DNA from: Promethearchaeia archaeon
Lineage (GTDB): Archaea; Asgardarchaeota; Lokiarchaeia; Sigyniarchaeales; SOKP01
Reading direction: 5' to 3'
DNA: 64,000 nucleotides
Assembly: GCA_046483985.1 (NCBI GenBank)
Contig: JAWOCD010000011.1
Location: 9,202-73,201, forward strand
The notes below the pieces were generated by a model. It searched no databases. It saw nothing but the letters and a program-made list of their open reading frames with translations, and was not told the DNA's origin. Both the position numbers and the translations under genes were made by a program. Shown here in pieces: positions 11,574 through 53,436 of the stretch (positions within the stretch are counted from its first letter, which is position 1; each line of letters starts with the position of its first letter).

Positions 11574-12136
11574 AAGTTTGAAATGATTTTTTGAAAAAGC
11601 AAATTAAATGCTTTATCCACGTTCTTGTTTAATTTCGCCGAAGTTTCTATGTAAGGAGCTCCCAATATTGTACATTTTTTTTCAATCGCTGTTTCGGGAA
11701 CTTCCCGATTTTCCCCATCAAATAAATCTATTTTGTTTCCCACAATCACATAAGGGATATCACCGCATTTTTCGTGTATCTTTTCTACCCAGAAGTCCAA
11801 GTGGTTAAAGGTTTCATAGTTATTAAGATTAAACACGACCATTGCTCCGTGCGCATCTTCAAAATAATAATTAGTGACAAATAGGGTATTTTTTTGTCCG
11901 CCTATATCCCAGAAATAAATTTTAAATCCTTTTTGTCTCATTTTCTTTCGAGACTTGAAATCTTTAAACTCGATTTTATCAAGAATTTCGGTTAAATTAA
12001 TTTCGTTAACTATAAAATTAGCGCCCACGGTCTGATTATATTCATCCCTGAAGATTCCTTCGGAATAACGCAAAAGAAGACTCGTTTTGCCCACCATCGA
12101 ATCTCCGCACATCACGACCTTCCCTGTATAGCTCAT
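11570..12136 (-). CDS. Rab-like small GTPase (Ras superfamily)
   Basis: G1 GDSMVGKTS, G2 TVG, G3 WDIGGQ, G4 NKID, G5 ETSAK; no C-terminal prenylation Cys. Confidence 0.93.
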   Translation of the reverse strand: MSYTGKVVMCGDSMVGKTSLLLRYSEGIFRDEYNQTVGANFIVNEINLTEILDKIEFKDFKSRKKMRQKGFKIYFWDIGGQKNTLFVTNYYFEDAHGAMVVFNLNNYETFNHLDFWVEKIHEKCGDIPYVIVGNKIDLFDGENREVPETAIEKKCTILGAPYIETSAKLNKNVDKAFNLLFQKIISNF

Positions 12137-18812: not shown

Positions 18813-20804
18813 TTATAATTCTTCCCTTATTTCTTCATAGAAATCTAAAGAATCTGGATTACTTAAAGCTCCACGATTACCAACGGACATACCTCGTAAG
18901 ATCTTCGTGACAGCTATTTCTACTTTCTTTCCACTGAAGGTATAAGGAATACAATTTTCAGGGACTTTCATGATTTGAGAAGGTACATGTCTGGGGGATG
19001 CATCATTTCTTAGGGTAGTTTTTATTTTGTCCTTTAGATCATCGGTCAACTCTACGCCTTCAGCAAGATTAACGAACAAGATAACTTCTACATCCCCTCT
19101 TTCTCCTTTATGACCGATCGCTAAACTGTCTTCTACTTCTGGGAGCTGTTCAACCACATTGTAGATTTCTGCTGTGCCAATTCTAACGCCAGATGGTTTC
19201 AGAGTAGCATCGGATCTTCCCAAAAAGGTTATTCCGCCCGTGTCACTATGGATGATTATCCAGTCTCCGTGCCGCCAGACATTTTTATCTTCGTAAAAGT
19301 TAAAGTAGGCATCCTTGTATTTGGTCATATTCTCATCATCTCCCCAGAAATATATGGGCATCGAGGGAGATGGAGCTTCACAGACAAGTTCTCCTTGCTG
19401 ATCCAGGACAGGCTTTCCTTCTGGATCGTATGCCTTAATTTTCATTGCTAATGCTGGAGCTTGTAATTCTCCCGAATATACCGGTTCGATTGGGAATGCT
19501 CCCGCAAAACATCCGTTAATATCGGTACCTCCCGAAATTGAATTTAGAAAAAGATCCTCCTTAATTTCATTATAGCAATATTCAAATCCTTCCGGACTCA
19601 AAGCACTCGCGGTTTGGGAGATCTCTCGTAAGCTCGATAAGTCATATTTCTCCTTCGGCTTTAGTCCTTTTCCCATTAATGTGTGAATATATGTCGCAGA
19701 CGTTCCAAAAATGGAAATATTATATTTTTCTATGAGTTCAAACATCCGTAAAGGTTCCGGATACAAGGGATTGCCATCATAGAGAAAAATAGTTGCGCCA
19801 ACACCTAAGGAACTAATTAACCAATTCCACATCATCCATGATGGCGCCGTGATATAATTGATAATATCATTTCTTGTCAGATCAGTAGATAGGATCAGTT
19901 CTTTAAGATGATTAATTAATACGCCTCCAGCACTTTGAACCATACATTTGGGTTTCCCCGTCGTTCCAGATGAAAACATAACATAAACGGGGTGTCCAAA
20001 CGGGAGTTGCTCAAATTGGAGTTTCGGATTCTCTTCTTTTGAGAGAAACTCATCCCAGTGAACTGCATTCGAAAGGCCGCTGATATCTGGTTTATCATCT
20101 GAAATATAAGAGACGACTACGATTTTTTCAATTGAGGGGATAGCATCAACTACTTCTTTTACATTAGAAAGAATGTTAAACTTCTTATCTTTATAAAAAT
20201 AACCATCCACTGTAAAGAGAACTTTCGGTTCAATTTGACCAAATCGGTCGATTACGGCACTTGCTTGTAACTCCGCGCCACAAGATGCCCAAGTAGCCCC
20301 AATTGCCGTTGTGGCGAGCATAGCAACAGGGGCTTCAATCAAGTTGGGGATATAAGATACTACTCTATCTTTAGGTTTAATTCCTTCCTCTTTCAAAGAT
20401 TTTGCGACTCTGGCAACAAGTGAATTCAGTTCTTTATAGGTAATTTTCTGTGTTTTTTTTGTTTCTCCTTGGAAGATAAAGGCTAATTGGTCATCATCAA
20501 ATTTCAGTAAATTTTCTGCAAAATTTAACCGAGCTCCCTTAAACCATTTACACCCCGGAAACTTATTGAGATCATCAACTATTTCAGTATACGGTTCAGA
20601 CGCTTTGATATCTCCAAAATCCCACATCGCCTCCCAAAAGTTCGGTATTTCTTGGATCGACCATTCATACAAATCGTCATAAGTTTCAATATTTTGGTTA
20701 TATTCTTCATTTACATAATTAATAAACCTAGTAACTTCAGCCTTCTCAATCCAATCCTTGGCAGGTGTCCATAATTTTTTTCTTTTTACCATTTTTTTCG
20801 CCAT
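18813..20804 (-). CDS. acsA: Acetoacetate-CoA ligase
   Basis: WFKGARLNFAENLL, FSSGTTGKPKC, WMMWNWL, SISGGTD, WRHGDW, GRSDATL.P.GVRIGT and SGKKVE motifs. Confidence 0.92.
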   Translation of the reverse strand: MAKKMVKRKKLWTPAKDWIEKAEVTRFINYVNEEYNQNIETYDDLYEWSIQEIPNFWEAMWDFGDIKASEPYTEIVDDLNKFPGCKWFKGARLNFAENLLKFDDDQLAFIFQGETKKTQKITYKELNSLVARVAKSLKEEGIKPKDRVVSYIPNLIEAPVAMLATTAIGATWASCGAELQASAVIDRFGQIEPKVLFTVDGYFYKDKKFNILSNVKEVVDAIPSIEKIVVVSYISDDKPDISGLSNAVHWDEFLSKEENPKLQFEQLPFGHPVYVMFSSGTTGKPKCMVQSAGGVLINHLKELILSTDLTRNDIINYITAPSWMMWNWLISSLGVGATIFLYDGNPLYPEPLRMFELIEKYNISIFGTSATYIHTLMGKGLKPKEKYDLSSLREISQTASALSPEGFEYCYNEIKEDLFLNSISGGTDINGCFAGAFPIEPVYSGELQAPALAMKIKAYDPEGKPVLDQQGELVCEAPSPSMPIYFWGDDENMTKYKDAYFNFYEDKNVWRHGDWIIIHSDTGGITFLGRSDATLKPSGVRIGTAEIYNVVEQLPEVEDSLAIGHKGERGDVEVILFVNLAEGVELTDDLKDKIKTTLRNDASPRHVPSQIMKVPENCIPYTFSGKKVEIAVTKILRGMSVGNRGALSNPDSLDFYEEIREEL

Positions 20805-20976: not shown

Positions 20977-21882
20977 TTAGAGCTCAACTTCATCCTTGAG
21001 GCAATTAAAAATTTTAAGGGCCTCCTCACCTTGAGCAATCTCTCTACCAGCATCTTTTGCAACCTTTACTGCCCATTCAACTTGTTCCCAAGAACCTTTA
21101 GCCAAGTCACCTTCGATGTTACGGATATTATCCTCTAATCCAACTCTTATATGCCCACCTAAAGCCGCTGCGCACATTCCCGCTTGAAATTGCTGTTTAG
21201 CCACTCCGCACACACTCCAAGTAGCTTCTGGAGGCTTAAGTTGAAGCAGATGGGCAAGATTTAAAGGAGAAAAAGGAATACCACCAAGCACACCAAATAC
21301 AAATTGAAAATGAAGAGGTTGTTCAAAAAGACCCTCTTGCTTATTTAAAAAGAGCATATTATGTAATCCGCCCATATCATAAATTTCCATTTCTGGCTTG
21401 GTTTTCGCCTTTTTCATCTTTTTCGCGAACTTTTGGATGGTCTTAAACGAGTTTTCGAAAATATTCCCAGCAGCCATAATCACTTCTCCCGTTTTAAAAT
21501 CGCCAATGCTAAAATTCATGGAATTAGTATTTAAAGACGCAATGGGTGGTTTAAAAGTCTTTACCGGTTTTATCCGTTGTCTCTCAGATGCAACTGCACT
21601 AATAGCAGTGCTTAAATTAATGATCACATCAGGAGCTTTTGATTTTATATTTTCTAAGGCATCTCTGATTAAATCCAAGTCCCATGTTGGAATACCCTTC
21701 TCTGGATCTCGAATGTGAAGGTGTACAATTGCCGCTCCAGCGTCATAGCATTTCTTTGCTGCGTCACCGAATTCCTCTGCTGTATAAGGGACTGCTTCAT
21801 TTTGAGACTTTCGAGTTGCCGCTCCAGTCAAAGCTGCAGTAATTATCAACTTATTATCCGGATTTGATTTTGATGAATACAT
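20977..21882 (-). CDS. Beta-keto acid cleavage enzyme (BKACE/Kce, DUF849)
   Basis: ITAALTGA, GAAIVHLHIRD, KPEMEIYD and GGHIRVGLEDN motifs. Confidence 0.93.
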   Translation of the reverse strand: MYSSKSNPDNKLIITAALTGAATRKSQNEAVPYTAEEFGDAAKKCYDAGAAIVHLHIRDPEKGIPTWDLDLIRDALENIKSKAPDVIINLSTAISAVASERQRIKPVKTFKPPIASLNTNSMNFSIGDFKTGEVIMAAGNIFENSFKTIQKFAKKMKKAKTKPEMEIYDMGGLHNMLFLNKQEGLFEQPLHFQFVFGVLGGIPFSPLNLAHLLQLKPPEATWSVCGVAKQQFQAGMCAAALGGHIRVGLEDNIRNIEGDLAKGSWEQVEWAVKVAKDAGREIAQGEEALKIFNCLKDEVEL

Positions 21883-22196: not shown

Positions 22197-22718
22197 TTAT
22201 TCCTCGTTATCCTCCTCTTCGTTAATTTCCTTTGCTGGGTCGGGTATTACATCATAATGATCAATATCCATCCATTGTCCCTTTCTTTCATCCGCCCATG
22301 CTACTTTTAATGGCATCCCCACATACACATCATGAAAATCCACTTGCTCTTCATTTAAGTTTTGAATAAATACTGTATCTGCTCCATCTTGTTGCACAGC
22401 AACAACAGGAAAAGGTACTTTTTCTCCCTCCTCATTTTCTTCGTAAGTTGCTGAAAACGTTGAGACTTTTGCCGTCTTTGGGAGTGTTACCCATTGATCG
22501 GGCTTTTTAAGGCATCTTCCACAGATCAAACGAGGTGGAAACGAAACTGTATTACAGGATCTACATTTTAATCCGAGTAAATTGCCTTCTTTTAATCCTT
22601 GCAAGAAAACTTTAATTCGGGAGAGGTTAAATTTATAATTATAACTGCTTAAATACCAATGTCCCTTTGTGGTTTTTGTCTTCTTATATTCCTTTTTCTC
22701 ATAATCTGGTAAAGGCAT
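22197..22718 (-). CDS. DUF35 Zn-ribbon/OB-fold protein (cassette 1, downstream)
   Basis: CRSC...FPPR..CGRC zinc ribbon, DGADT and VGMPLKVAW OB fold. Confidence 0.92.
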   Translation of the reverse strand: MPLPDYEKKEYKKTKTTKGHWYLSSYNYKFNLSRIKVFLQGLKEGNLLGLKCRSCNTVSFPPRLICGRCLKKPDQWVTLPKTAKVSTFSATYEENEEGEKVPFPVVAVQQDGADTVFIQNLNEEQVDFHDVYVGMPLKVAWADERKGQWMDIDHYDVIPDPAKEINEEEDNEE

Positions 22719-22736
22719 TAGTCAACATTTCACCTC

Positions 22737-23981
22737 CTATGTAAATTTTCTCCTTGGCTTATCGGCCAATACAATATGTGTAATAAAATTTATCGCGCCA
22801 CCCCAACCATGCCCTAAAGCGGTATGTACTGTTTTAGGAACCCGGTTTCCAGCTTTGCCCATAATTTGTAGCGCCGCTTCAGCTGGTCGTTCCATCGCAG
22901 ATGCACCAATAGCATTAGTTGAATTTACTCCACCCGAACAATTCACGGGTAACTCCCCATCACGAGCAGTGACTCCATTTTTATAGGCTTCGGGTGCAGA
23001 ATTAGGCTCAAATAAACCCGTTCTTTCTACCCACATTAATTCTTGATTTGGAAAGGGAGAATACACTTCAGCATAATCAATTTCTTTTTGTGGAAAAGCA
23101 ATTCCTGCTTGACCGTAAGCAATTTCTGCGGATTTAACAGCGCCTAACTGTTCTGTGGGGTCTACTTGACCAGCACCAGAAACATCAACCCCTATAATCG
23201 CGGGCTCATTAGCTATACTGGCTACCCCATTAACGTAGACTGGAATATCTGCAATTTCTTTTGCTTTCTCTTCTGTGGTGAATAGAACCGCGCAAGCTCC
23301 ATCCGATGCCGGACACACCATCCCAAACCTTAGGGGATAGGAAATATAAGGGGTATCGAGCACATCATCAATGGTTAAATTGGGCATTTTTAAATGGGTC
23401 CACCAATTTTTAGCAGCGTTTCTGCGATTTTGAACAACAACACGGGCTAAATCTTCTTCGGTTGCTTTAGTCCGTTTCATATAATTCATAGCTTGATATG
23501 ACGCAACTCCTATAGCTGCTCCCGCCCCCATATTTCTCCTCAATCTATCAATATCATAGCCAAGTTGGGGAAAGATTGATACCTCCCCTAAAGCTACAGA
23601 AGATAATCCCACAGTAGTATCACCACATGATTGCTGTTCAAACGCAATAGCCAAAACCGTATCATATAGTCCCGATGCAACTGCATAATACCCAGAAATA
23701 AAAACTGATCCTCCAGTTGTTCCGCCAGTAGTTACCCTTAAAAGAGGTTTATCTTTTGCGGCAATATGATCGGTCATCCATAATTCGGGCATATTAGCTC
23801 CCTCAAATGCGGGCATATTTCCATTAATAACACAATCGATATCTTTCCACTCCACAGAATCGGCTTTCTCTAAACAATCTTCGACTGCTTCGTTTACCAT
23901 CTCGGCCATATTCACATCAGAGCGTTTCGATGCATGCTCACAAAACCCACAGCTAATTACAGCAGGTTGAATTTTTTCCAT
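22737..23981 (-). CDS. Ltp3-like thiolase-fold protein (no acylating Cys), cassette 1
   Basis: FEGANMPELW, KPLLRVTTGGTTGGS (Gly at the usual Cys position), CPASDGA, AEVYSPF, SGGVNSTNAIGAS and ALGHGWGG parallel actinobacterial Ltp3. Confidence 0.82.
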   Translation of the reverse strand: MEKIQPAVISCGFCEHASKRSDVNMAEMVNEAVEDCLEKADSVEWKDIDCVINGNMPAFEGANMPELWMTDHIAAKDKPLLRVTTGGTTGGSVFISGYYAVASGLYDTVLAIAFEQQSCGDTTVGLSSVALGEVSIFPQLGYDIDRLRRNMGAGAAIGVASYQAMNYMKRTKATEEDLARVVVQNRRNAAKNWWTHLKMPNLTIDDVLDTPYISYPLRFGMVCPASDGACAVLFTTEEKAKEIADIPVYVNGVASIANEPAIIGVDVSGAGQVDPTEQLGAVKSAEIAYGQAGIAFPQKEIDYAEVYSPFPNQELMWVERTGLFEPNSAPEAYKNGVTARDGELPVNCSGGVNSTNAIGASAMERPAEAALQIMGKAGNRVPKTVHTALGHGWGGAINFITHIVLADKPRRKFT

Positions 23982-23983
23982 TT

Positions 23984-25141
23984 TTAGGCAGCACCTCCTT
24001 CTAATACAAATATTATATTATTCTGCGCACAGAATCCAACTTGCCCAGACGCGATTGCTCTTTTTGCCCCCGAAACTTGATGGCCTTCCGCTTCCCCACG
24101 AATTTGTTTCGCTGCCTCAATAATTCTCGTTAGCCCGTTTGCACATGGAGTATATCCCGCCATTGTTCCGCCGGAAGGATTCAAAATCTCCTTATCCACC
24201 AATTCGACACCTTTTCCTTTTTCAGCTAATTTTGCGGCTTCTGATAAAATTAAATCCTCACATGCCGTATGTCCGAATATCTCGGCAACATCGATTTCCT
24301 TTTTTGGATCCCGAATATTAGCCATTTCATACGCTTTCTTAGAAGCTCGTTCCATTGATTTGCTTGTACTAAGGTCCCGATCTCCTATATAATAGGTATC
24401 ATTATTATGCCCTACACCTGTAATCCATACGGGGTTGTCAGTGATTTTTAACGCTAATCTTTCTGGGGCGATAATCACTACTGAGCAAGAATCACATAGT
24501 ATAGGATACATCAACTCTCTTAAAGGAGAACTTAAATAGTCAGATTCAAGCACATCTTCAACTGTGATACCCGATTTCTGAGCTTCGGAAAGCGCTAAGG
24601 GATTTTTAGCCGCATTTTTATAATTGGATACCGCCATTTTCGCTATAACTTCCTTAGATACCCCAAAATTATGCATATATGCCCTCATTTGCATTGCACC
24701 TGTCGTATAACTGTTGAGTAAATTAATCTGTCTATCAAAAGTGGGATCATTCTCTAAAACTCGGGTAGATTCATATGGGAAACATGAAGGCATGCTCGTT
24801 CCGTATATTACTGCAAGATTGTGATTGCCTGATAATATTCTCCATAGACCGTACATCAACCCATGTGCACCATCCATTTCTACCTTAGTTTCATCCTTCA
24901 TATAGGCTCCCCCAGACTCAACCTTAAAACAGTTTGATATCGTCTTTCCATCATAATAATCATTATTGACACCCACTACAGTTGTGATATCATCTCGTTT
25001 TAAATTTGCATAGTCCAAAGCCCCTCTGACTGCCGTGAAGTCCATTTCATATTGGCTCATTTTCATATCTAAATCGGGTTTCACTTGGTAATATCCTACT
25101 ATTCCAACTTTATGCACCTCATTCACCTCCCAAGGGTTCAA
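23984..25141 (-). CDS. Ltp4-like degenerate thiolase-fold protein, cassette 1
   Basis: DYYDGKTIS, ETKVEMDGA (cf. Ltp4 ESHVEMDAA), NPSGG and C-terminal AQNNIIFVLEG. Confidence 0.82.
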   Translation of the reverse strand: MNPWEVNEVHKVGIVGYYQVKPDLDMKMSQYEMDFTAVRGALDYANLKRDDITTVVGVNNDYYDGKTISNCFKVESGGAYMKDETKVEMDGAHGLMYGLWRILSGNHNLAVIYGTSMPSCFPYESTRVLENDPTFDRQINLLNSYTTGAMQMRAYMHNFGVSKEVIAKMAVSNYKNAAKNPLALSEAQKSGITVEDVLESDYLSSPLRELMYPILCDSCSVVIIAPERLALKITDNPVWITGVGHNNDTYYIGDRDLSTSKSMERASKKAYEMANIRDPKKEIDVAEIFGHTACEDLILSEAAKLAEKGKGVELVDKEILNPSGGTMAGYTPCANGLTRIIEAAKQIRGEAEGHQVSGAKRAIASGQVGFCAQNNIIFVLEGGAA

Positions 25142-25595
25142 ACCCTTCTATATCTGATGGATCTCCTTCACGCTTTTCACTCCAGACAATTTGCATTTTC
25201 ATATTCATTTTTAAATCTCCCAGTTCGGTATTAATAATTGGGAGAACCATGGCTGTATCAGCTCCATCTATTTTTATTAACCCAACCGTATTTTCTGAAC
25301 GACTCTTTCTTTTTCTTCGTTCTGAAATTTTATAGGGTGTCACAGTAAAATTCTTCAATGTTCCCGTATCGGGCAATACGATATATTCTTCTGCTTTGGT
25401 GAAACAATCTCCGCATCTCTTTCTTGGGGGGATAAATATTTTACCACATTTATTGCATTTGTTACCGATTAATTGCTGATTCTCTAATCCCTCGAAAAAT
25501 TTATCCATAGGTTCGCCAACCCAAAAATCAAATTCTGCACGTACCATTCCACGAGTTACGTAAATGTCTTGGTCTTCTTCTAAATCAATAGGCAT
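25119..25595 (-). CDS. DUF35 Zn-ribbon/OB-fold protein (cassette 1, upstream)
   Basis: CNKC..IFIPPRKRCGDC and IDGADT; likely ATG at 25595. Confidence 0.92.
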   Translation of the reverse strand: MPIDLEEDQDIYVTRGMVRAEFDFWVGEPMDKFFEGLENQQLIGNKCNKCGKIFIPPRKRCGDCFTKAEEYIVLPDTGTLKNFTVTPYKISERRKRKSRSENTVGLIKIDGADTAMVLPIINTELGDLKMNMKMQIVWSEKREGDPSDIEGFEPLGGE

Positions 25596-25903
25596 TTCAT
25601 TCACTTATCTTTTTTGAATTTTTTATTTAATTACGTTTTATTTTTTAAAAATTGGATATAAATATTTTTCTTTTCCCTAAATATATATTTTTAATTTTTC
25701 TGTTTTGATAATTTGTTTTTATATTATTTTCATAGATTCCACATTTTATGAATTTTTAATCATTGAACCTCTCTTTTTCTATTAAAATTATAATTATGGA
25801 GGAATTACTACCTCTTATGGAGAATTTCTGTTAAATTTCATAAAAGTTTTAACTTTTTATAAATGAAAAGTATTAAATTATAAAAAAACCCATAAATATT
25901 AAT

Positions 25904-27640
25904 ATGGAATTTAATAATGAGATCAAAAGATCGGACTACAAATCACGTTTTTGGAAAAACAACTGGGATGAAGGATTAGAAGACCTAGATCCCAATAAAT
26001 GGAAAAAATTGGGATCTTTTGATAATGCCTTACGGCACGCATTTGAAACATATCCAAATAGAAATGCTTTATCATTTTTGGGTGTTGAAATCACCTTTCG
26101 AGAGCTTGATAAATATTCCAATCAATTCGCAAATATGCTCCTCGACAAAGGGTTTCAAAAGGGAGATATTGTTGCTATAGCTATGCCTAACATTCCTGAA
26201 TATATCATTGCAATAGTAGGGGGCTTAAAAGCAGGTTGTACGGTCTCAGGTGTGAGTCCCTTGTTTTCAGATGTTCAAATGGAATATCAATTAAATGATT
26301 TAGGAAGCTCTGGTAGGAAGATATGTTTAGTAACCTTAGATGCAATATTTGAAGAGCGAGTAACTAAAATCCATCATTTGATAAAACAGATCAAATTGGT
26401 GGTGGCAGGAAACCTAGGAGATTTTTTACCAGCTTACAAACGCTTTTTGGGAAAATTATTGAACAAAATTCCCAAAGGGAAGGTAACTCCTTTACCAGAG
26501 AAGGAAGTTTTGGACTTTCATAATGATATATTGAACACTTATCCCCATACTGCAGTGAACGTAGAAGTAGATAATGAAGATATAGCCTTTATTCAATATA
26601 CTGGAGGAACCACTGGAACGCCGAAAGGCGCGAAGTTAACACATAAGAATATTCTTTCCGATTTACTTATTGTGCAAGAGTGGTTGGGGTGGGAAGAAGG
26701 AAAAGGAACTGCTCTATCGGGGTTCCCATTTTTTCACATTGCCGGTTTGTTCTTCTGTGAAAATTGTCTATATCTTGGCTGGCAACAATGCTTAATTCCA
26801 GATCCCCGGGATGCTTCCCATATTTGCGATGAAATAGAAAAATATAAGCCAACGGCCTTAGTCAATGTCCCCTCCTTATTTCAGATTCTATTAAAAGAAC
26901 CAGAATTTAAAGAACTTGATCATTCTAATTTAGAGTTTTGTATATCCGCAGCCTCCCCGTTTCCTGTAGAATCGCAAGAGAAATTAGAAGCAATTATAGG
27001 AGAAGGAAAATTATTGGAGGTTTATGGGATGACTGAAACTTCTCCGCTCACTACTATGAATCCTGCCCACGGTGAAAAAAAACTCGGGTCTATCGGATTG
27101 CCTTTACTAAATACTGAATTAAAATTGGTTGCACCCGATACCGGTGAAGAAGTCCCAATCGGAGAGCCAGGCGAAATATGCGTCAAGGGACCTCAAGTAA
27201 TGAAAGGGTATTTAAATAAGCCAGAAGAAACTGAAAAAGCAATTGACTCAGAGGGTTATATGCATACTGGCGATGTCGCCATAATGGATGAGGAAGGATA
27301 TTTAAGAATTGTAGATCGCACGAAAGATATGATAAATGTCTCGGGTTATAAGGTATTTTCTACCAAAGTTGAAGACACTTTATCAAAACACCCGGCAATA
27401 GACATGATTGCGTTGGTAGGAGTTGATAACCCCGAAAGACCCGGTTCTGAAATAGTAAAAGCATATATTAAATTAACTGCTGAGTATGAAGAGACCCCCG
27501 CCGAAGAAGTTAAAGCAGATATCATTGAGTATGCGAAGGAACACTGCGCGCCCTATGAAGTCCCAAAAATCATTGATATTTCAAAGGAAATGCCTATGAC
27601 AGGAGTGGGTAAGATAGATAAGAAAATCCTAAGAGATTGA
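25904..27640 (+). CDS. Long-chain-fatty-acid-CoA ligase (FadD/LcfA-like)
   Basis: YTGGTTGTPKG, YGMTETSP, HTGD, DRTKDMINVSG and GKIDKK motifs. Confidence 0.93.
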   Translation: MEFNNEIKRSDYKSRFWKNNWDEGLEDLDPNKWKKLGSFDNALRHAFETYPNRNALSFLGVEITFRELDKYSNQFANMLLDKGFQKGDIVAIAMPNIPEYIIAIVGGLKAGCTVSGVSPLFSDVQMEYQLNDLGSSGRKICLVTLDAIFEERVTKIHHLIKQIKLVVAGNLGDFLPAYKRFLGKLLNKIPKGKVTPLPEKEVLDFHNDILNTYPHTAVNVEVDNEDIAFIQYTGGTTGTPKGAKLTHKNILSDLLIVQEWLGWEEGKGTALSGFPFFHIAGLFFCENCLYLGWQQCLIPDPRDASHICDEIEKYKPTALVNVPSLFQILLKEPEFKELDHSNLEFCISAASPFPVESQEKLEAIIGEGKLLEVYGMTETSPLTTMNPAHGEKKLGSIGLPLLNTELKLVAPDTGEEVPIGEPGEICVKGPQVMKGYLNKPEETEKAIDSEGYMHTGDVAIMDEEGYLRIVDRTKDMINVSGYKVFSTKVEDTLSKHPAIDMIALVGVDNPERPGSEIVKAYIKLTAEYEETPAEEVKADIIEYAKEHCAPYEVPKIIDISKEMPMTGVGKIDKKILRD

Positions 27641-27745
27641 ACTACCACGCCATAAATGTCGGTGGATTCGTGCTCTCCGCTACGGCGGATAACACTTGCT
27701 GGTTCTCCAGCGGCTCTCGCATGGTTTCTATTCATTGCGAACTGT
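27617..27745 (-). ncRNA. Putative omegaRNA/reRNA-like scaffold plus flank-derived guide
   Basis: Four consecutive hairpins (27717-27740, 27698-27711, 27670-27695, 27645-27665) lie downstream of a BRE/TATA-like motif and end at the element's right end. Boundaries are inferred. Confidence 0.5.
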
Positions 27746-27845
27746 TTTCTCGGAATTCTTATATATATCCTTTCCGTTATTTAAATGGTTGGATTGGTGC
27801 GATTCATCGCACACCTAAAGGAGTATGTTTTCTCGCACATTTTGG
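27637..27845 (-). mobile_element. Non-autonomous IS200/IS605-family miniature element (PATE/MITE-like), 209 bp
   Basis: On the minus strand: TTTAT target motif, left-end hairpin GTGCGA...CCTTTAGG...TCGCAC (27797-27838), and right-end hairpin GAATCCACCGACATTTATGGCGTGGTAG ending in TTCAA. No target duplication. Deleting 27637-27845 gives CTA AGA GAA TAA, an intact in-frame end for the ligase gene. Confidence 0.85.
27757..27776 (-). promoter_or_regulatory. Archaeal BRE/TATA-like promoter inside the miniature element
   Basis: Minus strand reads CGGAAAGG-ATATATATAAG, about 20-25 nt upstream of the first hairpin. Confidence 0.5.
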
Positions 27846-28019
27846 ATAAAAATAAAAATTGGGATCAGTAAAAAACAGTCACAAAATCAGTAATAATTCT
27901 GACAAATTATTATTACTACTCGTATAATCAGTAATTAAAAATAGCACGAAATTTTCTAAATGTGAAAAAAACATGAATTTTAAAAAAAAAAAAATAGCAA
28001 AAAAAAATAAAGAAAATTA

Positions 28020-28520
28020 TTATAAATCCTTTGAATCGTCTTCTATAGGCTCGTAATGATCAATCGCGGAAATATTAGCTACTGGCTCTTCAGACCATAC
28101 CACTTTAACTGGCATTCCGACATACACATCTTCAAAATCTATATCCTTTCTCAATGATGCTAACATTGTCGTATCACAGCCATCATGACGGACTGCAACA
28201 ACCGGTTTTTCAGCAACTTCTCCAGTTTCGGGATCTTTTTCATAGGTTATACTATATGTGGCAATTTGAGCCGTTTCACGAATATCTACCCATCTGTCGG
28301 GTTTAATAAAGCACTTTCCACAGACCAGTTTTGGAGGAAAAAACACCGCATTACAACTCCGACATTGATTTCCAACTAACTTTCTCTCCTTTAATTTCTC
28401 AAAGAATGGTTGAAAATGAGTGAAGTCAAATCGGAATTTATACTTGGATAAATACCAATTAGCGCCAATTGTTCTTGTCTCTTCATATTCTTTTCTTTCA
28501 TACTCCAATTTTTTTGACAT
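28020..28520 (-). CDS. DUF35 Zn-ribbon/OB-fold protein (cassette 2, downstream)
   Basis: CRSC..VFFPPK..CGKC; clear paralogue of 22197-22718 (WYLSxY, KPDxWV, DVYVGMP, IDHY). Confidence 0.92.
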   Translation of the reverse strand: MSKKLEYERKEYEETRTIGANWYLSKYKFRFDFTHFQPFFEKLKERKLVGNQCRSCNAVFFPPKLVCGKCFIKPDRWVDIRETAQIATYSITYEKDPETGEVAEKPVVAVRHDGCDTTMLASLRKDIDFEDVYVGMPVKVVWSEEPVANISAIDHYEPIEDDSKDL

Positions 28521-28532
28521 TTTATTAACCTC

Positions 28533-29780
28533 CTATTTCGTTTTTCTTTTTGGCTCATCTGACATGACCATCATCGTGATAAGATTGATAATACCGCCCC
28601 ATCCATGCCCTAATGCCGTGTGCACCGTCTTATCAACTTGATTCCCTGCTTTTCCCATGATTTGTAATGCCGCTTCCGCGGGACGTTCCATCGCTGATGC
28701 TCCAATTGCATTGGTTGAATTTACACCTCCAGAAGCACATACAGGGAGTTCCCCATCGGGAGCTGTGACTCCAGTCTCATACATTTCCGGTGCCGTATTA
28801 GTCTCAAATAATCCCAGTTTTTCAACCCACATAAGTTCTTGATTAGGAAATGGTGCATAGACTTCTGCGTAATCAATTTCTTTATTGGGGAAAGAAATCC
28901 CAGCTTGACTATAAGCTAATTCGGCACTTTTTTGAGCGCCCAATTGCTCCGACGGATCCAACTGACCTGAACCCGAGGCAGCATATCCCATAATTCCCGT
29001 CTCATTGGCAACACTAGCTACTCCATTCACATACACAGGCACATCTACCAATTCTTTAGCCTTTTCTTCGGTTGTAAAAATCATAGCACAGCACCCATCA
29101 GATGCCGGACACACCATCCCAAATCTTAATGGATATGAGATATAGGGAGTATCTAACACTTTATCAATAGTAAGATCAGGCATCTTAAGATGCGTATACC
29201 AATTTTTGGCAGCATTCCTTCGATTTTGGACCACCACACGGGCTAAATCTTCTTCGGTTATCTTCGATTTTCTCATATAATTGGTCGCTTGATAGGACGC
29301 AATCCCGATTGCAGCCCCGGCAGATACCAATCTCTTCAACTTTTGTAAAGGAATCCCTAAGGATTGAGTTGCAGTTAGTTCGCCCAATGCAACACTCGAC
29401 AATCCCACGGTTGTATCCCCAATTGATTGATGTTCAAATGCAATAGCCATCACCGTATCGACACCAGGGATTTCCGCAGCCACGGAATAATATCCTGAGA
29501 TAGCCACAGACCCTCCTGTTGTACCTCCGGTGGTAACACGCATTAAGGGTTTATTTCTCGCTCCCATCCAATCAGTCATCCATAATTCTGGGATACTGGC
29601 CCCCTCGAACGCGGGCATATTTCCATTTACAAACATATCAATATCTTCAATTCCCATTCCTGGTACATTTTCTAAGCAGTTTTCCACAGCTTCACTCACC
29701 ATTTCAGGCATACTCACATCAGAACGACTCTTAGCATGTTCACAAAATCCTGCTGAAGCTATAGCAACTTGTCTACCCAT
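28533..29780 (-). CDS. Ltp3-like thiolase-fold protein, cassette 2
   Basis: Close paralogue of 22737-23981 (RVTTGGTTGGS, AEVYAPF, HTALGHGWGG); likely ATG at 29780. Confidence 0.82.
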   Translation of the reverse strand: MGRQVAIASAGFCEHAKSRSDVSMPEMVSEAVENCLENVPGMGIEDIDMFVNGNMPAFEGASIPELWMTDWMGARNKPLMRVTTGGTTGGSVAISGYYSVAAEIPGVDTVMAIAFEHQSIGDTTVGLSSVALGELTATQSLGIPLQKLKRLVSAGAAIGIASYQATNYMRKSKITEEDLARVVVQNRRNAAKNWYTHLKMPDLTIDKVLDTPYISYPLRFGMVCPASDGCCAMIFTTEEKAKELVDVPVYVNGVASVANETGIMGYAASGSGQLDPSEQLGAQKSAELAYSQAGISFPNKEIDYAEVYAPFPNQELMWVEKLGLFETNTAPEMYETGVTAPDGELPVCASGGVNSTNAIGASAMERPAEAALQIMGKAGNQVDKTVHTALGHGWGGIINLITMMVMSDEPKRKTK

Positions 29781-29781
29781 T

Positions 29782-30921
29782 TTAATTTGCACCTCCTTCT
29801 AAAATAAAAGCAATATTGTTTTGTGCACAGAAACCTATTTGACCCGTTGCGATTGCCCGTTGTGGGTCTTCCACTTGGTGATTACCAGCCTTTCCTTGAA
29901 GCTGTTTAACGGCTTCAATAATTCTTATTATACCCGTTGCAAACGGGGCATTTCCCGCAATCCCTCCACCCGACGGATTAATTGGTAAGTCCCCGTCTAT
30001 CTCAGAATTGATCTCGGGGGCTTTTCCTTTTTCAGCTAAACCGATTGCTTCAGCCAGAATTAATTCTTCGTGGGCAGAATGTTCAAATATTTCAGCAACA
30101 TCAATATCCTCCGCTGAGAGATCAGCAGATTTCAAAGCCAATCTTGCTGCTTTTTCCATTGCTTTATTTTCATATAAGTTTCTATCTCCCAAATAATAGG
30201 TATCTTGGTTATATCCCACTCCAGTAATCCAAATGGGGTTATCAGTTATTTTAAGAGCTTGTTTTTCTGGTGCTAGTAATAAAGCTGCCATCCCGTCACA
30301 CGGATGTGCATACATTGATTCCGTTACTGGAGAACTCATGATTTCGGATTCCATTACATCATCCACCGTAATCTCTGCGTCTTGAGCATCGGGACAAGCC
30401 TTTTCATTCTTGGCAGCATTCTTTCGATTTTTCACTGCAACTTCAGCGATTTCCTCAGCACTTACACCGAACTTCTCCATGTAGGCTCTCATCTGGAAAC
30501 CACCGGCTGTGATATCATTTACCAGCATAGTAGGGCGTTCCCAAGTAGGATCAGATGTATACAAGCGTGCAGCATGATACGGATATGTACTGGGAGTTGA
30601 GCCGCCGTAAACCACTGCCAATTTATGATTTCCGGATAGAATGCGCATCAAGCCATAAAGAACCGCAAACGCGCCGTCCATCTCAACCTTACTTTCGTCT
30701 TCCAAATACGCACCAGCAGGCTCCACGACATATGCATTTGAGATGGTTCTTCCGTCATAATAGTCATTCGTAGCGGAGATCACCGTAGTAATATCCTTTT
30801 TCTTGAGATCGGCATTATCTAATGCGCCCCGGACAGTTTCAAAAATGAGATCATAACGTCCATATTTTAATTTACTCGCTAAAGGACTCTGTTTATATCC
30901 GACTATGCCAACTTTTTGCAT
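29782..30921 (-). CDS. Ltp4-like thiolase-fold protein, cassette 2
   Basis: DYYDGRTIS, ESKVEMDGA and GQIGFCAQNN; paralogue of 23984-25141. Confidence 0.82.
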   Translation of the reverse strand: MQKVGIVGYKQSPLASKLKYGRYDLIFETVRGALDNADLKKKDITTVISATNDYYDGRTISNAYVVEPAGAYLEDESKVEMDGAFAVLYGLMRILSGNHKLAVVYGGSTPSTYPYHAARLYTSDPTWERPTMLVNDITAGGFQMRAYMEKFGVSAEEIAEVAVKNRKNAAKNEKACPDAQDAEITVDDVMESEIMSSPVTESMYAHPCDGMAALLLAPEKQALKITDNPIWITGVGYNQDTYYLGDRNLYENKAMEKAARLALKSADLSAEDIDVAEIFEHSAHEELILAEAIGLAEKGKAPEINSEIDGDLPINPSGGGIAGNAPFATGIIRIIEAVKQLQGKAGNHQVEDPQRAIATGQIGFCAQNNIAFILEGGAN

Positions 30922-30923
30922 CT

Positions 30924-31400
30924 TTACTCCTCACCTCCAGCTTTAATAAACCCTTCAATATCTTCTGGGCTTCCCTTGGGTTTTTCTGCCCATTTTACTT
31001 TCACTTTCAGTCCCGTTTCTAATTCTTCTGGTTCCATATCTAATAATTCATAGATGATTGAGGTGGAGCATCCATCTATCTGTACCATTCCAATCATTCG
31101 TTTAGAGCTCACGGTTCTTGCCCCTCTTTCATTAACTTTATAGGGGGTCAGAGTATAATTCACCAAGGTTCCTGTGTCTGGAAGGTCTACCCAATTCTCT
31201 TCTAAGGGGATAGTAACATGGCATTTTCCGCAGATTTTTCTCGGGGGGAGAAACACATCATTGCATTCCGGACATTGATTCCCAATCAATTCTTTATTCT
31301 CAAATTCGTCAAACATTTTATCCATGTATTTTCCCACATAAAAGTCGAAATTGGCTCGGACCATTCCACGATTTGTTACGATTACTTTGTCATTTGACAT
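30924..31400 (-). CDS. DUF35 Zn-ribbon/OB-fold protein (cassette 2, upstream)
   Basis: CPEC..VFLPPRKICGKC; shares RGMVRAxFDF and MDK with 25119-25595; likely ATG at 31400. Confidence 0.92.
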   Translation of the reverse strand: MSNDKVIVTNRGMVRANFDFYVGKYMDKMFDEFENKELIGNQCPECNDVFLPPRKICGKCHVTIPLEENWVDLPDTGTLVNYTLTPYKVNERGARTVSSKRMIGMVQIDGCSTSIIYELLDMEPEELETGLKVKVKWAEKPKGSPEDIEGFIKAGGEE

Positions 31401-31565
31401 TTTTTTTCCTTCTTCTAAATTTGGATTAAATAAATTTTCTAATAAACTATTTGTTTTCAATCAATTTAAAGGTTTTAATTAAAAATTATCATAATCCCAA
31501 ATTTGTTAAACTTTAATTATGAAAAATAGAAAATCTGATCACTAAATATAAAAAAAAATTAAAAT

Positions 31566-31937
31566 TTATTGAGATTTTAATGCAGCAGTTATGGCTCTGG
31601 TTAATCGAATAACTTCCATTACTTTTCCTTGTTCGACGGTGATTTCCTCTCTAGAAATCGCGTGGGTGAAATCTCCTTGTCCATTGCAAATCTTAACAAT
31701 GGCTTCCGAATCTCCAGACATAATGATATCGGGGTTTTCTGCCTTTCCTTCATACAGTTCTCCTTTTGTGTCTTCGATCTGAAGATAAAACGGTTTTTGA
31801 TCGTCCAAATTAAATTGAAATACCATGTCCCAGTTGACATCGGTACCGGCTTTATTGGTCACAAAGACTTGACGGGCTTTTCGCGTATCATTCACTTTCT
31901 TGATAATTTCTTCTAAATTCTTTTTTGGCTCGCTCAT
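31566..31937 (-). CDS. SCP2 sterol/lipid-binding domain protein
   Basis: FQFNL..PFYLQI...G.AENPDIIMSGDSEAIVKICNGQGDFTHA pattern. Confidence 0.88.
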   Translation of the reverse strand: MSEPKKNLEEIIKKVNDTRKARQVFVTNKAGTDVNWDMVFQFNLDDQKPFYLQIEDTKGELYEGKAENPDIIMSGDSEAIVKICNGQGDFTHAISREEITVEQGKVMEVIRLTRAITAALKSQ

Positions 31938-32443
31938 TCTTTCTCGCCTCCTTCAAATTCTGGTTTTTGTATCCAATTTTCATATTCTCCTTCGGGAACA
32001 AAGAAAAAATCCGTAATTTTTCCTTCCCGATCTTCTTCCTTCTTAAAGACTGCGCGAACTATTTCTCCTTTTTTGATTTTGGAAGGGACTAAGTTTTCCG
32101 AAAAGATTCCTTGTAGCATAGCCGTATCTGCCTCATCCAATCGGATAAACGCAATCCCATATGGAACATTTTGGATAAAGTCAGATGTGGTATACCAGAC
32201 GATTGTGCTGACCTCAATAGTTCCCGTATGGGGAAGTTCAATCCACTCGGTATCTTCGTAGCAATCAGAACATGCAATTCTGGGCGGCATCCAGACTTTC
32301 CCGCACTTCTTACACTGAGTTCCCAGCAATTTTTTCTCATTCATCAAGTCTATAAAGAACTTTGATTGACCACCCAGTGTATATTTGTAGGATATCTTGA
32401 TTTGATCTCTTATCTGATGTTCTTGAAAATCTTTCTCACTCAT
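31934..32443 (-). CDS. DUF35 Zn-ribbon/OB-fold protein
   Basis: CKKC..VWMPPRIACSDC and PY.IAFIRLDEADT. Confidence 0.92.
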   Translation of the reverse strand: MSEKDFQEHQIRDQIKISYKYTLGGQSKFFIDLMNEKKLLGTQCKKCGKVWMPPRIACSDCYEDTEWIELPHTGTIEVSTIVWYTTSDFIQNVPYGIAFIRLDEADTAMLQGIFSENLVPSKIKKGEIVRAVFKKEEDREGKITDFFFVPEGEYENWIQKPEFEGGEKE

Positions 32444-33693
32444 TCTTTTATCAACCCCTCCTTATTTGCCATTGTAATTACGGCAGCATATGCTGCCCCC
32501 GGTCCACCAATTGAATGAGAAAGTGCACGTCCATGTTTTATGGAAACTTGATGCTTTCCAGCATCTTCTCGTAATTGAAGTGCAGCTTCACCCGTTGACA
32601 TAATCCCCGTGGCGCCTACGGCATGACCACATCCAATTAATCCACCTGACGGGCAGCAAGGTAATTCACCGTCAATCCATGGTCCCTCTCCGGTATTAGG
32701 TCCGGATTCAATCCATTTTCCTCCTTGTCCGAAGTCAACAAATCCGAGTTCCTCATAACTGATTACCTCTTGGCCGGAAAAGGCATCATGTAACTCCGCC
32801 ACATCAATTTGATCCTTAATGTTATCATAATCCAATCCCGCCATCTCATAGGCTTTTTTTGCTGCATTAATATTCGAATATAACCTCCCCAAATCCTCTC
32901 TATTTCCAATAAAGCAATCGGTATTGGCAGCTCCAACACCCGTGATCCAAATTGGCTTTTCAATTCCCAACTCCTTTACCTTATCTTCATTGGCTAATAT
33001 TAAGGCGGCAGACGCTTCTGAATAAAGACAACAATCTAACATCTTGAATGGATAACAAATGATCCTTGAATTCATAACATCTTGAACGTTTATGTCCATT
33101 GGAGATTGCGCTTTGGGATTTAACATTGCATTTTTATGATTTTTTACAGAGACCAGTGCCATTTGTTCTTCAGTCGGATTTCCAAACTCTTCTTTATGTG
33201 CGTTGACCATGGATACATACGAACTTGCCGCCATCATACCTAATGGATATTCATAAGTCATATCAGCACTGTAGGCGATAGCATTAAGAACTTCTGGAGT
33301 GGTTGTCCCTGTCTGTTCGTCATAACAATCATTGCATTTTTCTACTCCTAGACATAAAGATAAGTCGGAAAGACCCGAAGCAACTTCCGCATATGCCATT
33401 CGTACAGTGTATCCTCCTGTAGCCCCACCGGAGGCAATTCTTGTCCCCGGTTTATCATTCATTCCAATATAGCTATTTGTGAAAATATCTGGCATAAACT
33501 GTCGTTCAAATAATTCATTATAAATCCCGTAGACAGTCGATTCGAGATTCTTGTGGGTAATATTGGCACCATTCCGGTTTGCATCTTCAAGTGCTAATTT
33601 TGTAGCATCGTAGGCTAATTCAAAATAAGTCTTATCCAAATAGCGAGCTTTAAATGGTGTAATTCCAACCCCTATTATAGCTACTTTCTTCAT
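32440..33693 (-). CDS. SCPx-type thiolase-fold protein lacking the N-terminal Cys
   Basis: IASGGATGG (Gly for Cys), KNHKNA..NP.AQ, AELHDAF and GHAVGATG. Confidence 0.85.
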   Translation of the reverse strand: MKKVAIIGVGITPFKARYLDKTYFELAYDATKLALEDANRNGANITHKNLESTVYGIYNELFERQFMPDIFTNSYIGMNDKPGTRIASGGATGGYTVRMAYAEVASGLSDLSLCLGVEKCNDCYDEQTGTTTPEVLNAIAYSADMTYEYPLGMMAASSYVSMVNAHKEEFGNPTEEQMALVSVKNHKNAMLNPKAQSPMDINVQDVMNSRIICYPFKMLDCCLYSEASAALILANEDKVKELGIEKPIWITGVGAANTDCFIGNREDLGRLYSNINAAKKAYEMAGLDYDNIKDQIDVAELHDAFSGQEVISYEELGFVDFGQGGKWIESGPNTGEGPWIDGELPCCPSGGLIGCGHAVGATGIMSTGEAALQLREDAGKHQVSIKHGRALSHSIGGPGAAYAAVITMANKEGLIKE

Positions 33694-33873: not shown

Positions 33874-34896
33874 TTGTTAAAAACTAAAATAACAGAAAAA
33901 TTTGGAATTAAGTACCCGATTATGAGTGCTCCAATGGGTCCTTTTTATACAACAGAATTGACTATTGCGACTTCCGAGGCGGGAGGTCTGGGTGTATTAT
34001 CTCATGCAACTCTCATGGGGAAGAATTCTATTGAAGATATGAAGGATCAAATTGATTACGTTGTTGAACATACAGATAAACCCTTCGGAGTAAATATTCG
34101 AACTGCTCGAGTACAAACCGACCATAAAATTCTGTTAAGAAAAATAAGAGAATGGAGAAATAAGAACCCAAAGATTAGGGAACAATTAATCTACGGATTA
34201 ACAAGCGCTGGGGGACCCCATTATGCGAGAAAAATATGGGGGGAAAAATCGCCAGGATTAAATCATTATCATGTAGCGCCTGCAATGTGGCTCATTGATA
34301 AAGTTGTAGAACAAGGGTGTGATGGAATTGTTGCAACCGGAACAGAAGGAGGAGGGCATCAATCTTATGAAAAGATTACAAGCTTGGTGCTTTTACAAGA
34401 AGTTGCCCGAAAATATCCTGATATGCCATTAGTTGCATGTGGCGGTATTGCTTCTCCGGAAGGAATTGCAGCTTCAATTGCCTTAGGTGCCGATGCGGTT
34501 ACTATGGGGACCCGATTTATTGCTTCTGAACAAAGTGAATTTCATCCGAAATATAAGAATCTTATCCCCCCCGCGGAAGACCGAGATACCCTCTTAACAA
34601 CCGGAGGATTTGGCCCTATTAGACTTATTAAGAATAAATACGCCTTAGAACATGGAAAAGTCATCTCTAAAGAAGAGAAAATTGCTCAAGAATTATCATA
34701 TGATATTGATGAATATATCAAAGATTTGAAAAAATATGAGATAGTCTATACCAAAGGCGATGTGGAGAATGGTGCAATCCCCGTAGGACAATCTTGTGGA
34801 ATTATTAAGGAAATAAAAGACGTTGATGACATTATTACCACGTTTACTAAAAAAACTGAAGAAATTCTACAAGAAGCGTGTTCTAAAATATCTTAA
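33874..34896 (+). CDS. Nitronate monooxygenase/FabK-family FMN oxidoreductase
   Basis: YPIMSAPMG, EAGGLG, KPFGVN, GTEGGGH, ACGGIA and GTRFIAS motifs. Confidence 0.9.
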   Translation: MLKTKITEKFGIKYPIMSAPMGPFYTTELTIATSEAGGLGVLSHATLMGKNSIEDMKDQIDYVVEHTDKPFGVNIRTARVQTDHKILLRKIREWRNKNPKIREQLIYGLTSAGGPHYARKIWGEKSPGLNHYHVAPAMWLIDKVVEQGCDGIVATGTEGGGHQSYEKITSLVLLQEVARKYPDMPLVACGGIASPEGIAASIALGADAVTMGTRFIASEQSEFHPKYKNLIPPAEDRDTLLTTGGFGPIRLIKNKYALEHGKVISKEEKIAQELSYDIDEYIKDLKKYEIVYTKGDVENGAIPVGQSCGIIKEIKDVDDIITTFTKKTEEILQEACSKIS

Positions 34897-38445: not shown

Positions 38446-38782
38446 TTTTAATTTCACGATTTTGTCGATTTAGGACTAATGAATATTAAGATCTTAACTT
38501 TTTTACTAGATTTATTATTAGGATCCACTAGTATTTATAAGTTTAGTTATCATTTTTCCTCATTTTATGCGAGATTCATCATCTATTAATATGGATTATG
38601 GGTCCTCTTCATTTTCAAAAGCTTTTTTCATATATTTTCCAAAATTTCATCAGTACAAAAAATCTTTTTTTTTAAAAAGAAAACTTCTGATCCAGTTAAT
38701 ATTTCATAGAGGAAACCTCTGGCGAATAATTATCTATAATCATAATCTTATTTTAGGCAAATCAATATATTTCTAATATATC

Positions 38783-53364: not shown

Positions 53365-53436
53365 AGTTATTAAGAATTAAAATCATATTATTTCATTTAC
53401 AATAATCAAAATAAATAAAAACCAAAAAAAGAAATA

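Follow-up and report, generated by a model that had tools for sequence, protein, structure and literature searches.

What reaction can be expected of a thiolase-fold protein that has lost its acylating cysteine and stands in an operon with a second such protein and two DUF35 proteins? The question is posed by a 64,000-nucleotide stretch of DNA from an Asgard archaeon (Promethearchaeia archaeon, assembly GCA_046483985.1, contig JAWOCD010000011.1, positions 9,202 to 73,201; called the window here, with positions counted from its first letter), in which the gene set DUF35b-ThlB-ThlA-DUF35a is present twice on the minus strand, at 25604-22197 (cassette 1) and 31460-28020 (cassette 2). The host genome measures 4.06 Mb and is 97 % complete, and close homologues of the window's proteins carry the names Promethearchaeota or Hodarchaeota. 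The answer that we favour, with a modest lean, is that the four proteins of each cassette make up a single enzyme, hetero-oligomeric and of the Ltp4/Ltp3/double-DUF35 type, which would act as a non-thiolytic retro-aldol C-C lyase on 3-hydroxyacyl-coenzyme A (CoA) thioesters.

Two cassettes of cysteine-free thiolase-fold proteins

The eight cassette genes, each in its order of transcription, are the following.

25119..25604, minus strand: DUF35b1, first gene of cassette 1; Pfam zf-ChsH2 and OB_ChsH2_C (zinc ribbon and OB)
23984..25141, minus strand: ThlB1, Ltp4-type thiolase-fold protein; Asp-Gly in the nucleophile loop, the HDCF His replaced by Phe (FGHT), Cys in the C-terminal loop (GxC)
22737..23981, minus strand: ThlA1, Ltp3-type thiolase-fold protein; Gly87 for the acylating Cys, Tyr307 for the HDCF His, Asn356 for the second His
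22197..22718, minus strand: DUF35a1, last gene of cassette 1; assigned by Pfam
30924..31460, minus strand: DUF35b2, first gene of cassette 2; assigned by Pfam
29782..30921, minus strand: ThlB2, Ltp4-type; Asp-Gly, FEHS, Asn at the second His position
28533..29792, minus strand: ThlA2, Ltp3-type; Gly, Tyr and Asn; the more widespread Asgard lineage
28020..28520, minus strand: DUF35a2, last gene of cassette 2; assigned by Pfam

The genes are tightly packed, with gaps of -23 to +18 nucleotides (nt), DUF35b1 overlapping ThlB1 by 23 nt. The cassette DUF35 genes are stand-alone and encode 161-178 amino acids (aa), and four cysteines are invariant across the window's five DUF35 proteins. An earlier, sequence-only reading of this DNA had recognized the same four-gene order in both places, with bounds that proved right to within the start codon (25604 instead of its 25595, and 31460 instead of its 31400). 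The position-by-position paralogy that it proposed is borne out gene by gene, the counterparts being 74 % identical for ThlA, 57 % for ThlB, 48 % for DUF35a and 46 % for DUF35b, as against 25 % between ThlA and ThlB and 28-31 % between DUF35a and DUF35b. As the pairwise E-values between counterparts range from 0 to 1e-54, this likeness is not due to chance; and as the two copies are only 64-68 % alike as DNA, the duplication is old.

In alignments with solved thiolases such as 7YVY and 6ESQ, Gly occupies the column of the acylating Cys in all four cassette thiolase-fold proteins, within RVTTGGTTGG in ThlA and KVEMDGA in ThlB, opposite the AAC-ASG of the two structures; the absence of this Cys, read earlier from the same motifs, is thereby placed on firm ground. 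The Tyr of AEVYSPF/AEVYAPF in ThlA, which had been assigned to the position of a thiolase His or Asn, aligns to the HDCF His of the trypanosome SCP2 thiolase 4BI9, and Asn356 aligns to the His of its GHP motif. Gly87, Tyr307, Asn356 and, in addition, His196 are invariant in 21 A-type sequences, archaeal and bacterial. Across 136 sequences the motifs fall into four groups: ordinary thiolases with xCx / HDCF / xHP; an A type with GG[TS] / YxPF / [TS]N[PA] plus His196; a B type with DGx that varies at the HDCF position and ends, in about two thirds of its members, with a C-terminal GxC; and a 'no Cys, His-His' group, which includes ThlC, a further protein of the locus described below. The A signature reads GGT/YSPF/TNA in Asgard archaea versus AGS/YVPF/TNP in Streptomyces. 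The replacement of Cys by Gly extends across both the A and the B clade, and both oxyanion/base His residues are lost in ThlA and ThlB. ThlB displays an invariant Asp-Gly and GxCxQ of its own, in an alignment whose rows were partly chosen for that Cys.

Close homologues are publicly named 'acetyl-CoA C-acetyltransferase', the standard annotation that had been anticipated. Could the cassettes be working ketothiolase/DUF35 pairs, like those that serve fatty-acid synthesis or beta-oxidation in Sulfolobus, with a relocated nucleophile such as the Cys in the C-terminal loop of ThlB? Ketothiolase/DUF35 complexes perform Claisen condensation in archaea, drive fatty-acid synthesis in Sulfolobus and average 3.8 pairs per Asgard genome (bioRxiv 10.1101/2024.07.05.601840). 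A FabK-like flavoprotein, a short-chain dehydrogenase/reductase (SDR) and acyl-CoA ligases are encoded close by, and the host genome holds elsewhere 8 acyl-CoA dehydrogenases and 6 crotonases, yet only two ordinary Cys-His-His thiolases, on contigs C41 and C94; the retention of the C-terminal-loop Cys in about two thirds of the B-clade rows also speaks for this explanation. However, as the acylating Cys is missing, thiolysis or Claisen condensation via an acyl-enzyme would not be expected; its replacement by Gly concerns four proteins and both clades, with both His gone from ThlA and ThlB, and these clades stand apart from the Cys-His-His thiolases in the tree presented below. As to a relocated Cys, the outcome is divided: Cys223 of ThlA is ruled out, its column holding Cys or Ser in ordinary thiolases and thus showing no compensating change, while the conserved C-terminal-loop Cys of ThlB is still a candidate. 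In sum, we consider ketothiolase activity distinctly unlikely.

Kinship with Ltp3 and Ltp4

Which thiolase-fold proteins, then, are the closest kin of ThlA and ThlB? The best NCBIfam model for ThlA is PRK08313, with 364 bits for ThlA1 and 356 bits for ThlA2, the next model scoring about 200; ThlB shares the PRK07937-type motifs VEMDGA and GxCxQxN, while its top models are PRK06066/PRK06065, at 182-199 bits. In Mycobacterium tuberculosis, the gene order is echA19 (Rv3516)...Rv3521-ltp4 (Rv3522)-ltp3 (Rv3523) (PMC6429209). Among actinobacterial genomes with an EchA19 above its cut-off, five of five carry a PRK07937 match directly followed by a PRK08313 match, both above cut-off, 5-9 kb from echA19. 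Because this order near echA19 matches that of M. tuberculosis, we equate PRK07937 with Ltp4 and PRK08313 with Ltp3. In a Streptomyces locus (L015), genes for an acyl-CoA synthetase (PRK07798) and a crotonase resembling EchA19 (374 bits, equivalog cut-off 400) precede one for a tandem DUF35-DUF35 protein of 320 aa, after which come matches to PRK07937 (571 bits) and PRK08313 (714 bits); the PRK08313 scores of Streptomyces and EchA19-linked proteins are 714-762 bits.

Like the Asgard cassette, the Ltp3-Ltp4-tandem DUF35 module (Rv3523/Rv3522/Rv3521 type) comprises two paralogous Cys-less genes, the B gene immediately ahead of the A gene, and its operon encodes two DUF35 domains. Common to both are the A signature of Gly, Tyr and Asn with YxPF, the B signature of VEMDGA with a C-terminal GxC, and membership in the same two clades. 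The two systems differ in that the DUF35 domains of the actinobacterial module are fused in one upstream gene, whereas those of the Asgard cassettes are separate and bracket the pair; in that the Streptomyces Ltp4-type protein has a His where ThlB has Phe; and in that the Asgard host is archaeal, with no echA19 or fadD19 linked. On comparison, a one-to-one pairing of DUF35a and DUF35b with the halves of the Streptomyces DUF35-DUF35 fusion was not established.

A maximum-likelihood tree of 116 rows (IQ-TREE with posterior mean site frequencies, PMSF, and a quick search, the supports of which are less reliable than full bootstraps) was built from matches to ThlA1, with the aldolases Ltp2 and Sal left out. 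In this tree the A and B clades together have a support of 99 in the Shimodaira-Hasegawa-like approximate likelihood ratio test (SH-aLRT) and lie apart from the Cys-His-His thiolases. The A clade (46 rows, SH-aLRT 95) unites ThlA1 and ThlA2 with the Streptomyces PRK08313 (Ltp3-type) proteins, and the B clade (38 rows, SH-aLRT 95) unites ThlB1 and ThlB2 with the Streptomyces PRK07937 (Ltp4-type) proteins; the Asgard proteins and the sterol-cluster Ltp3/Ltp4 proteins occupy different subclades. Forcing Asgard A and Asgard B together, a group that was defined after the tree had been seen, costs 281 log-likelihood units, with a p of 1e-4 in the approximately unbiased (AU) test. Since an Asgard-only A+B clade is rejected, the A/B duplication predates the split between the Asgard and the actinobacterial modules. 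The kinship with Ltp3 and Ltp4 that the sequence-only reading had asserted is thus supported at the family level, and the cassette proteins do not group with ordinary thiolases. Judged by sequence, ThlA and ThlB belong to a wider Ltp3/Ltp4 family, short of the strict family in both model scores and linkage to a sterol cluster.

The A clade also holds a Lokiarchaeia protein of 389 aa (P0130, about 43 % identical to ThlA1) with a Cys one residue before the nucleophile position (CGT for GGT); with Tyr and Asn still in place of the two His, it presents an unusual mixed state. Genes of 389-395 aa similar to it occur in many sampled Asgard genomes.

A candidate retro-aldol lyase

What could take the place of thiolysis in such proteins? 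A precedent is provided by three retro-aldolases or aldolase-like proteins of solved structure, Ltp2 (Y294DHF plus Tyr344), Sal (Y302DC304Y) and TbSLP (YDCF). Each has a catalytic Tyr in place of the HDCF His and a Gly in place of the nucleophilic Cys, the backbone of this Gly binding the substrate hydroxyl, and each binds a DUF35 domain (PMC12329534). Ltp3 and Ltp4 themselves, by the account of Wilbrink 2012 given in PMC10832528 and PMC6273163, are each genetically required for the degradation of C24-branched sterol side chains in Rhodococcus and are called aldol-lyases. By analogy with the dimers of Ltp2 and Sal, which are clamped by DUF35, we propose for each cassette a heterodimer of ThlA and ThlB with two distinct zinc-ribbon DUF35 proteins as its clamps. 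As ThlA keeps the Gly and Tyr used by the solved thiolase-fold aldolases, it may be the catalytic subunit, with the Gly backbone at the Cys site and the Tyr at the HDCF-His position as a base acting on the beta-hydroxyl. It would cleave 3-hydroxyacyl-CoA, independently of free CoA, to acetyl- or propionyl-CoA and an aldehyde or ketone, or catalyse the reverse addition, while ThlB, an old paralogue with its conserved Asp-Gly and C-terminal-loop Cys, could offer a second, different site or serve as a shaping partner. Homology, the loss of catalytic residues, the conserved operon structure and its distribution are direct observations, whereas the complex, its chemistry, the direction of the reaction and the class of the substrate are all inferred. 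The retro-aldolase idea of the sequence-only reading is reasonable for ThlA, which combines Gly and Tyr as Ltp2 and Sal do; the different specificities that it assigned to the two copies are putative.

How close are the systems of known structure? The steroid side-chain retro-aldolases TcLtp2-ChsH2 (6OK1) and CtSal-Shy (9MYR) share with the cassettes the SCP2-thiolase fold, a DUF35 partner, Gly at the Cys position and the Tyr of ThlA. They differ in that each is a homodimer and has only a single kind of DUF35, which is joined to a MaoC hydratase, and in having a catalytic acid, Tyr344 or Cys304, that is not in ThlA; the similarity in sequence is weak (E 4e-10 to 8e-14). The best structural matches, with template-modelling (TM) scores of up to 0.90, are archaeal ketothiolase/DUF35 complexes. 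Of these, the thiolase-HMGCS-DUF35 complex of M. thermolithotrophicus (6ET9; HMGCS, 3-hydroxy-3-methylglutaryl-CoA synthase) and the fatty-acid synthase core Saci_1121/1120 of S. acidocaldarius are alike in fold subfamily, stand-alone DUF35 and archaeal host, but in the complexes the nucleophilic Cys and the two His are intact, and a single thiolase pairs with a single DUF35. The best match to ThlA and ThlB in sequence and fold is the uncharacterized ST0096 of Sulfolobus tokodaii (4YZO), which has Ser for the nucleophilic Cys but His at both His positions (HDMA, GHP).

Several observations weigh against a retro-aldol lyase of the Ltp3/Ltp4 type. Neither of the known catalytic acids is present in ThlA, in which Pro aligns with Cys304 of Sal and Asn with Tyr344 of Ltp2. 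FGHT of ThlB aligns to YDCY of Sal and offers no base Tyr; in ThlB1 the base position is taken by Phe, and a Tyr aligns with Tyr344 of Ltp2 and Gln352 of Sal; and the conserved C-terminal-loop Cys of ThlB could still be a catalytic thiol. The AlphaFold2 monomer models of ThlA1 (pLDDT 85) and ThlB1 (pLDDT 90) have the SCP2-thiolase fold, but Foldseek ranks aldolases and thiolases alike with both of them, without separation. A hydratase of the MaoC or crotonase type, as encoded in the loci of Ltp2, Sal and Ltp3/4, is missing from this one, and no in-vitro activity is described in the accessible literature for a member of the Ltp3/Ltp4 clade. Finally, the ThlA scores lie below the curated cut-off of 514 bits of the Ltp3 family (NF006180/PRK08313), and ThlB1 and ThlB2 score 166 and 174 bits with PRK07937 (NF005924), the cut-off of which is 419.

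Do the missing acids point instead to some other Cys-free chemistry, such as the decarboxylation of acyl- or malonyl-CoA reported for trypanosome TbSLP, hydrolysis or isomerization? Thiolase-like active sites are heterogeneous, and TbSLP does decarboxylate malonyl-CoA (PMC12329534); a ThlA without either aldolase acid and a ThlB with a different conserved set, Asp and Cys, would be compatible with such a role. However, the Tyr of ThlA is common to TbSLP, Sal and Ltp2, TbSLP itself has been argued to be an aldolase (PMC12329534), and the nearest named relatives carry the label aldol-lyase on genetic grounds. We therefore regard these other reactions as unlikely, if still to be reckoned with, and retain the retro-aldol lyase as the favoured reading.

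Conservation, neighbours and substrate

Is the cassette a peculiarity of this genome? ThlA-like genes (E <= 1e-60) occur in 44 of 201 sampled genomes of the phylum. Among the 40 genomes of the host's family, 31 have orthologues of ThlA with at least 70 % identity, as do 3 of the 19 from a second family; two further families have orthologues at 47-49 %, and over 100 Asgard clusters are at least 72 % identical to ThlA. A synteny survey found the order DUF35b-B-A-DUF35a, with overlapping genes, in 8 of the 8 Asgard loci examined and in 6 of 6 loci from Actinomycetota. Mostly there is one cassette per genome, two high-identity copies of ThlA being seen only in the host and in the sister-genus genome G144. 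The cassette 2 lineage stands in unrelated contexts elsewhere (L102 and L107, with orthologues 76-79 % identical to ThlA2).

The nearest relatives outside the Asgard archaea belong to small-genome Actinomycetota (43-53 % identity, 29 of 401 sampled genomes), which have the same split four-gene cassette in all six loci among unrelated neighbours, such as genes for a histidine kinase, an S1 protein, a ferredoxin and a BAAT-type thioesterase. Since these sequences join the Asgard ThlA clade with a support of 100, the tree suggests a transfer between the domains, with the direction not fixed. The sister genome G144 harbours further variant modules (L106, G144:C6, 13696-16951 and 5482-8910): one arrangement consists of a ThlB-like gene, a ThlA-like gene and two DUF35 genes in tandem, and another pair has the motifs DGL/DDRF and GGG/YDPF. 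In view of these variants, the theme of two thiolase-fold and two DUF35 genes has several arrangements within a single genome.

A third, shorter module lies 105 nt upstream of cassette 2.

32440..33693, minus strand: ThlC, homologue of archaeal acetoacetyl-CoA thiolase; Cys85 to Gly, HDCF to HDAF, both His kept
31934..32443, minus strand: DUF35c, partner of ThlC, with a 4-nt overlap; assigned by Pfam
31566..31937, minus strand: protein with an SCP2 lipid-binding domain, last of the three genes; Pfam SCP2

ThlC is close to the M. thermolithotrophicus thiolase (E 1.5e-45; Cys85 is numbered after 6ESQ) and has lost both catalytic cysteines while retaining both His, so that all five thiolase-fold proteins encoded within 22197-33693 are without the nucleophilic Cys. 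It forms the separate 'no Cys, His-His' clade, with a support of 95, outside A+B. The order ThlC-DUF35c-SCP2 is kept in 8 of 8 loci. Of the 40 genomes sampled from the host's family, 29 encode a ThlC of 85-89 % identity, in every case with Gly for the Cys, and this module is more conserved than the ThlA/ThlB cassettes. A conserved thiolase-DUF35-SCP2 operon minus both catalytic cysteines represents a further putative enzyme type. The placement of a thiolase-fold gene beside an SCP2 gene recalls eukaryotic SCPx.

This conservation bears on the proposition that the proteins are non-catalytic pseudo-enzymes, which would bind or carry acyl-CoA or lipids, or act as scaffolds via DUF35. Every classical catalytic residue is gone, DUF35 proteins do serve as scaffolds, and the gene for an SCP2 carrier adjoins; but the many Asgard clusters close to ThlA, the high identity of ThlC and the invariance of polar residues at active-site positions across domains argue for catalysis, as does the block of catabolism upon loss of ltp3 or ltp4 (Wilbrink 2012, as cited in PMC10832528 and PMC6273163). 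A purely non-catalytic role thus appears improbable.

The remaining genes of the acyl-CoA-type cluster, which spans about 17-38.5 kb of the window, are these.

17264-18778, plus strand: TLP1-type thiolase-like protein with an extra C-terminal domain (PF18313), the sixth thiolase-fold gene of the cluster
18813..20804, minus strand: acetoacetate-CoA ligase (TIGR01217, 821 bits versus a cut-off of 521)
20977..21882, minus strand: beta-keto acid cleavage enzyme (BKACE; Pfam BKACE, 303 bits), co-directional with cassette 1 and 314 nt downstream of it
25904-27640, plus strand: acyl-CoA ligase, between cassettes 2 and 1
33874..34896, plus strand: NMO/FabK-family flavoprotein, divergent from ThlC (Pfam NMO, weak FabK match)
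35234-36397, beyond the NMO gene: SDR, epimerase/thioester-reductase-like (3-beta-HSD/epimerase family, HSD standing for hydroxysteroid dehydrogenase)
36427-38457, beyond the SDR gene: second ligase

The cassettes nearest to cassette 1 keep the BKACE neighbour (L101, L106 and L108), two of them with the acetoacetate-CoA ligase beside it (L101 and L108), while an NMO gene again adjoins the cassette in L101, L103, L105, L108 and one of the actinobacterial loci (L125). Outside the cluster, the window encodes a Ras/Roc-family small GTPase typical of Asgard archaea (11570-12136, minus strand; Pfam Ras, 1e-37) and adjacent NurA-like and HerA/DUF87 genes (52186-55032, plus strand), which follow a NERD/UvrD-type helicase gene (50086-51969).

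Which substrate do these neighbours suggest? The sequence-only reading had called the cassettes an actinobacterial-type sterol side-chain module that removes branches from sterol, hopanoid or isoprenoid chains, which would entail carboxylation of the branch, hydration and retro-aldol release of propionyl-CoA. In its favour, Ltp3 and Ltp4 are needed, by the same account (PMC10832528, PMC6273163), only for C24-branched sterols, the locus contains the SCP2 lipid-binding gene and an SDR of the 3-beta-HSD/epimerase family, and BKACE could accept a beta-keto acid product. However, the C24-branch route requires a carboxyltransferase, and none (PF01039) was found in the genome at its 97 % completeness, while 12 of 14 control genomes gave matches. 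The window has neither genes of the echA19/fadD19 type nor any other sterol genes in linkage with the cassettes, its ligases do not match PRK07798 best, and it contains no crotonase and no MaoC gene, the three MaoC genes of the genome being located on other contigs. The cassette is, moreover, free-standing, its second lineage and its actinobacterial versions occurring in unrelated contexts, and the Asgard proteins fall into another subclade than the sterol-cluster Ltp3/Ltp4. We conclude that the substrate is probably not a sterol and that branch removal from such chains is very improbable; this part of the earlier proposal is not supported.

BKACE and the acetoacetate-CoA ligase, the conserved neighbours of cassette 1, suggest by gene context that a beta-keto acid or acetoacetate is among its products. 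BKACE scores below every equivalog cut-off, and its specificity is thus not fixed by family models; that the products of the lyase feed it is speculation. A candidate role as HMG-CoA (3-hydroxy-3-methylglutaryl-CoA) lyase found no positive support, and the genome has no canonical HMG-CoA lyase above cut-off. Tentatively, and with rather low probability, the cassette, BKACE and acetoacetate-CoA ligase might form an undescribed oxygen-free, thiolase-independent Asgard route. In such a route, a 3-hydroxy-3-substituted, HMG-CoA-like acyl-CoA would be the substrate of the Cys-less complex and would yield acetyl-CoA and a beta-keto acid, BKACE would turn these into acetoacetate and a shortened acyl-CoA, the ligase would recover the acetoacetate, and the ThlC module would contribute a third Cys-free enzyme.

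What does this mean for the Asgard archaea, the closest archaeal relatives of eukaryotes? Genes of this kind are annotated as acetyl-CoA acetyltransferases and have presumably been counted among the ketothiolase/DUF35 pairs that hint at fatty-acid synthesis in Asgard genomes; as Cys-less cassette proteins cannot be thiolases, metabolic reconstructions of these archaea need correcting. The module described here adds to the Ltp3/Ltp4 family, itself biochemically undefined, a branch that is archaeal and probably non-sterol, and its small split-subunit versions from Asgard archaea and Actinomycetota could be convenient material for defining the reaction of the whole family.

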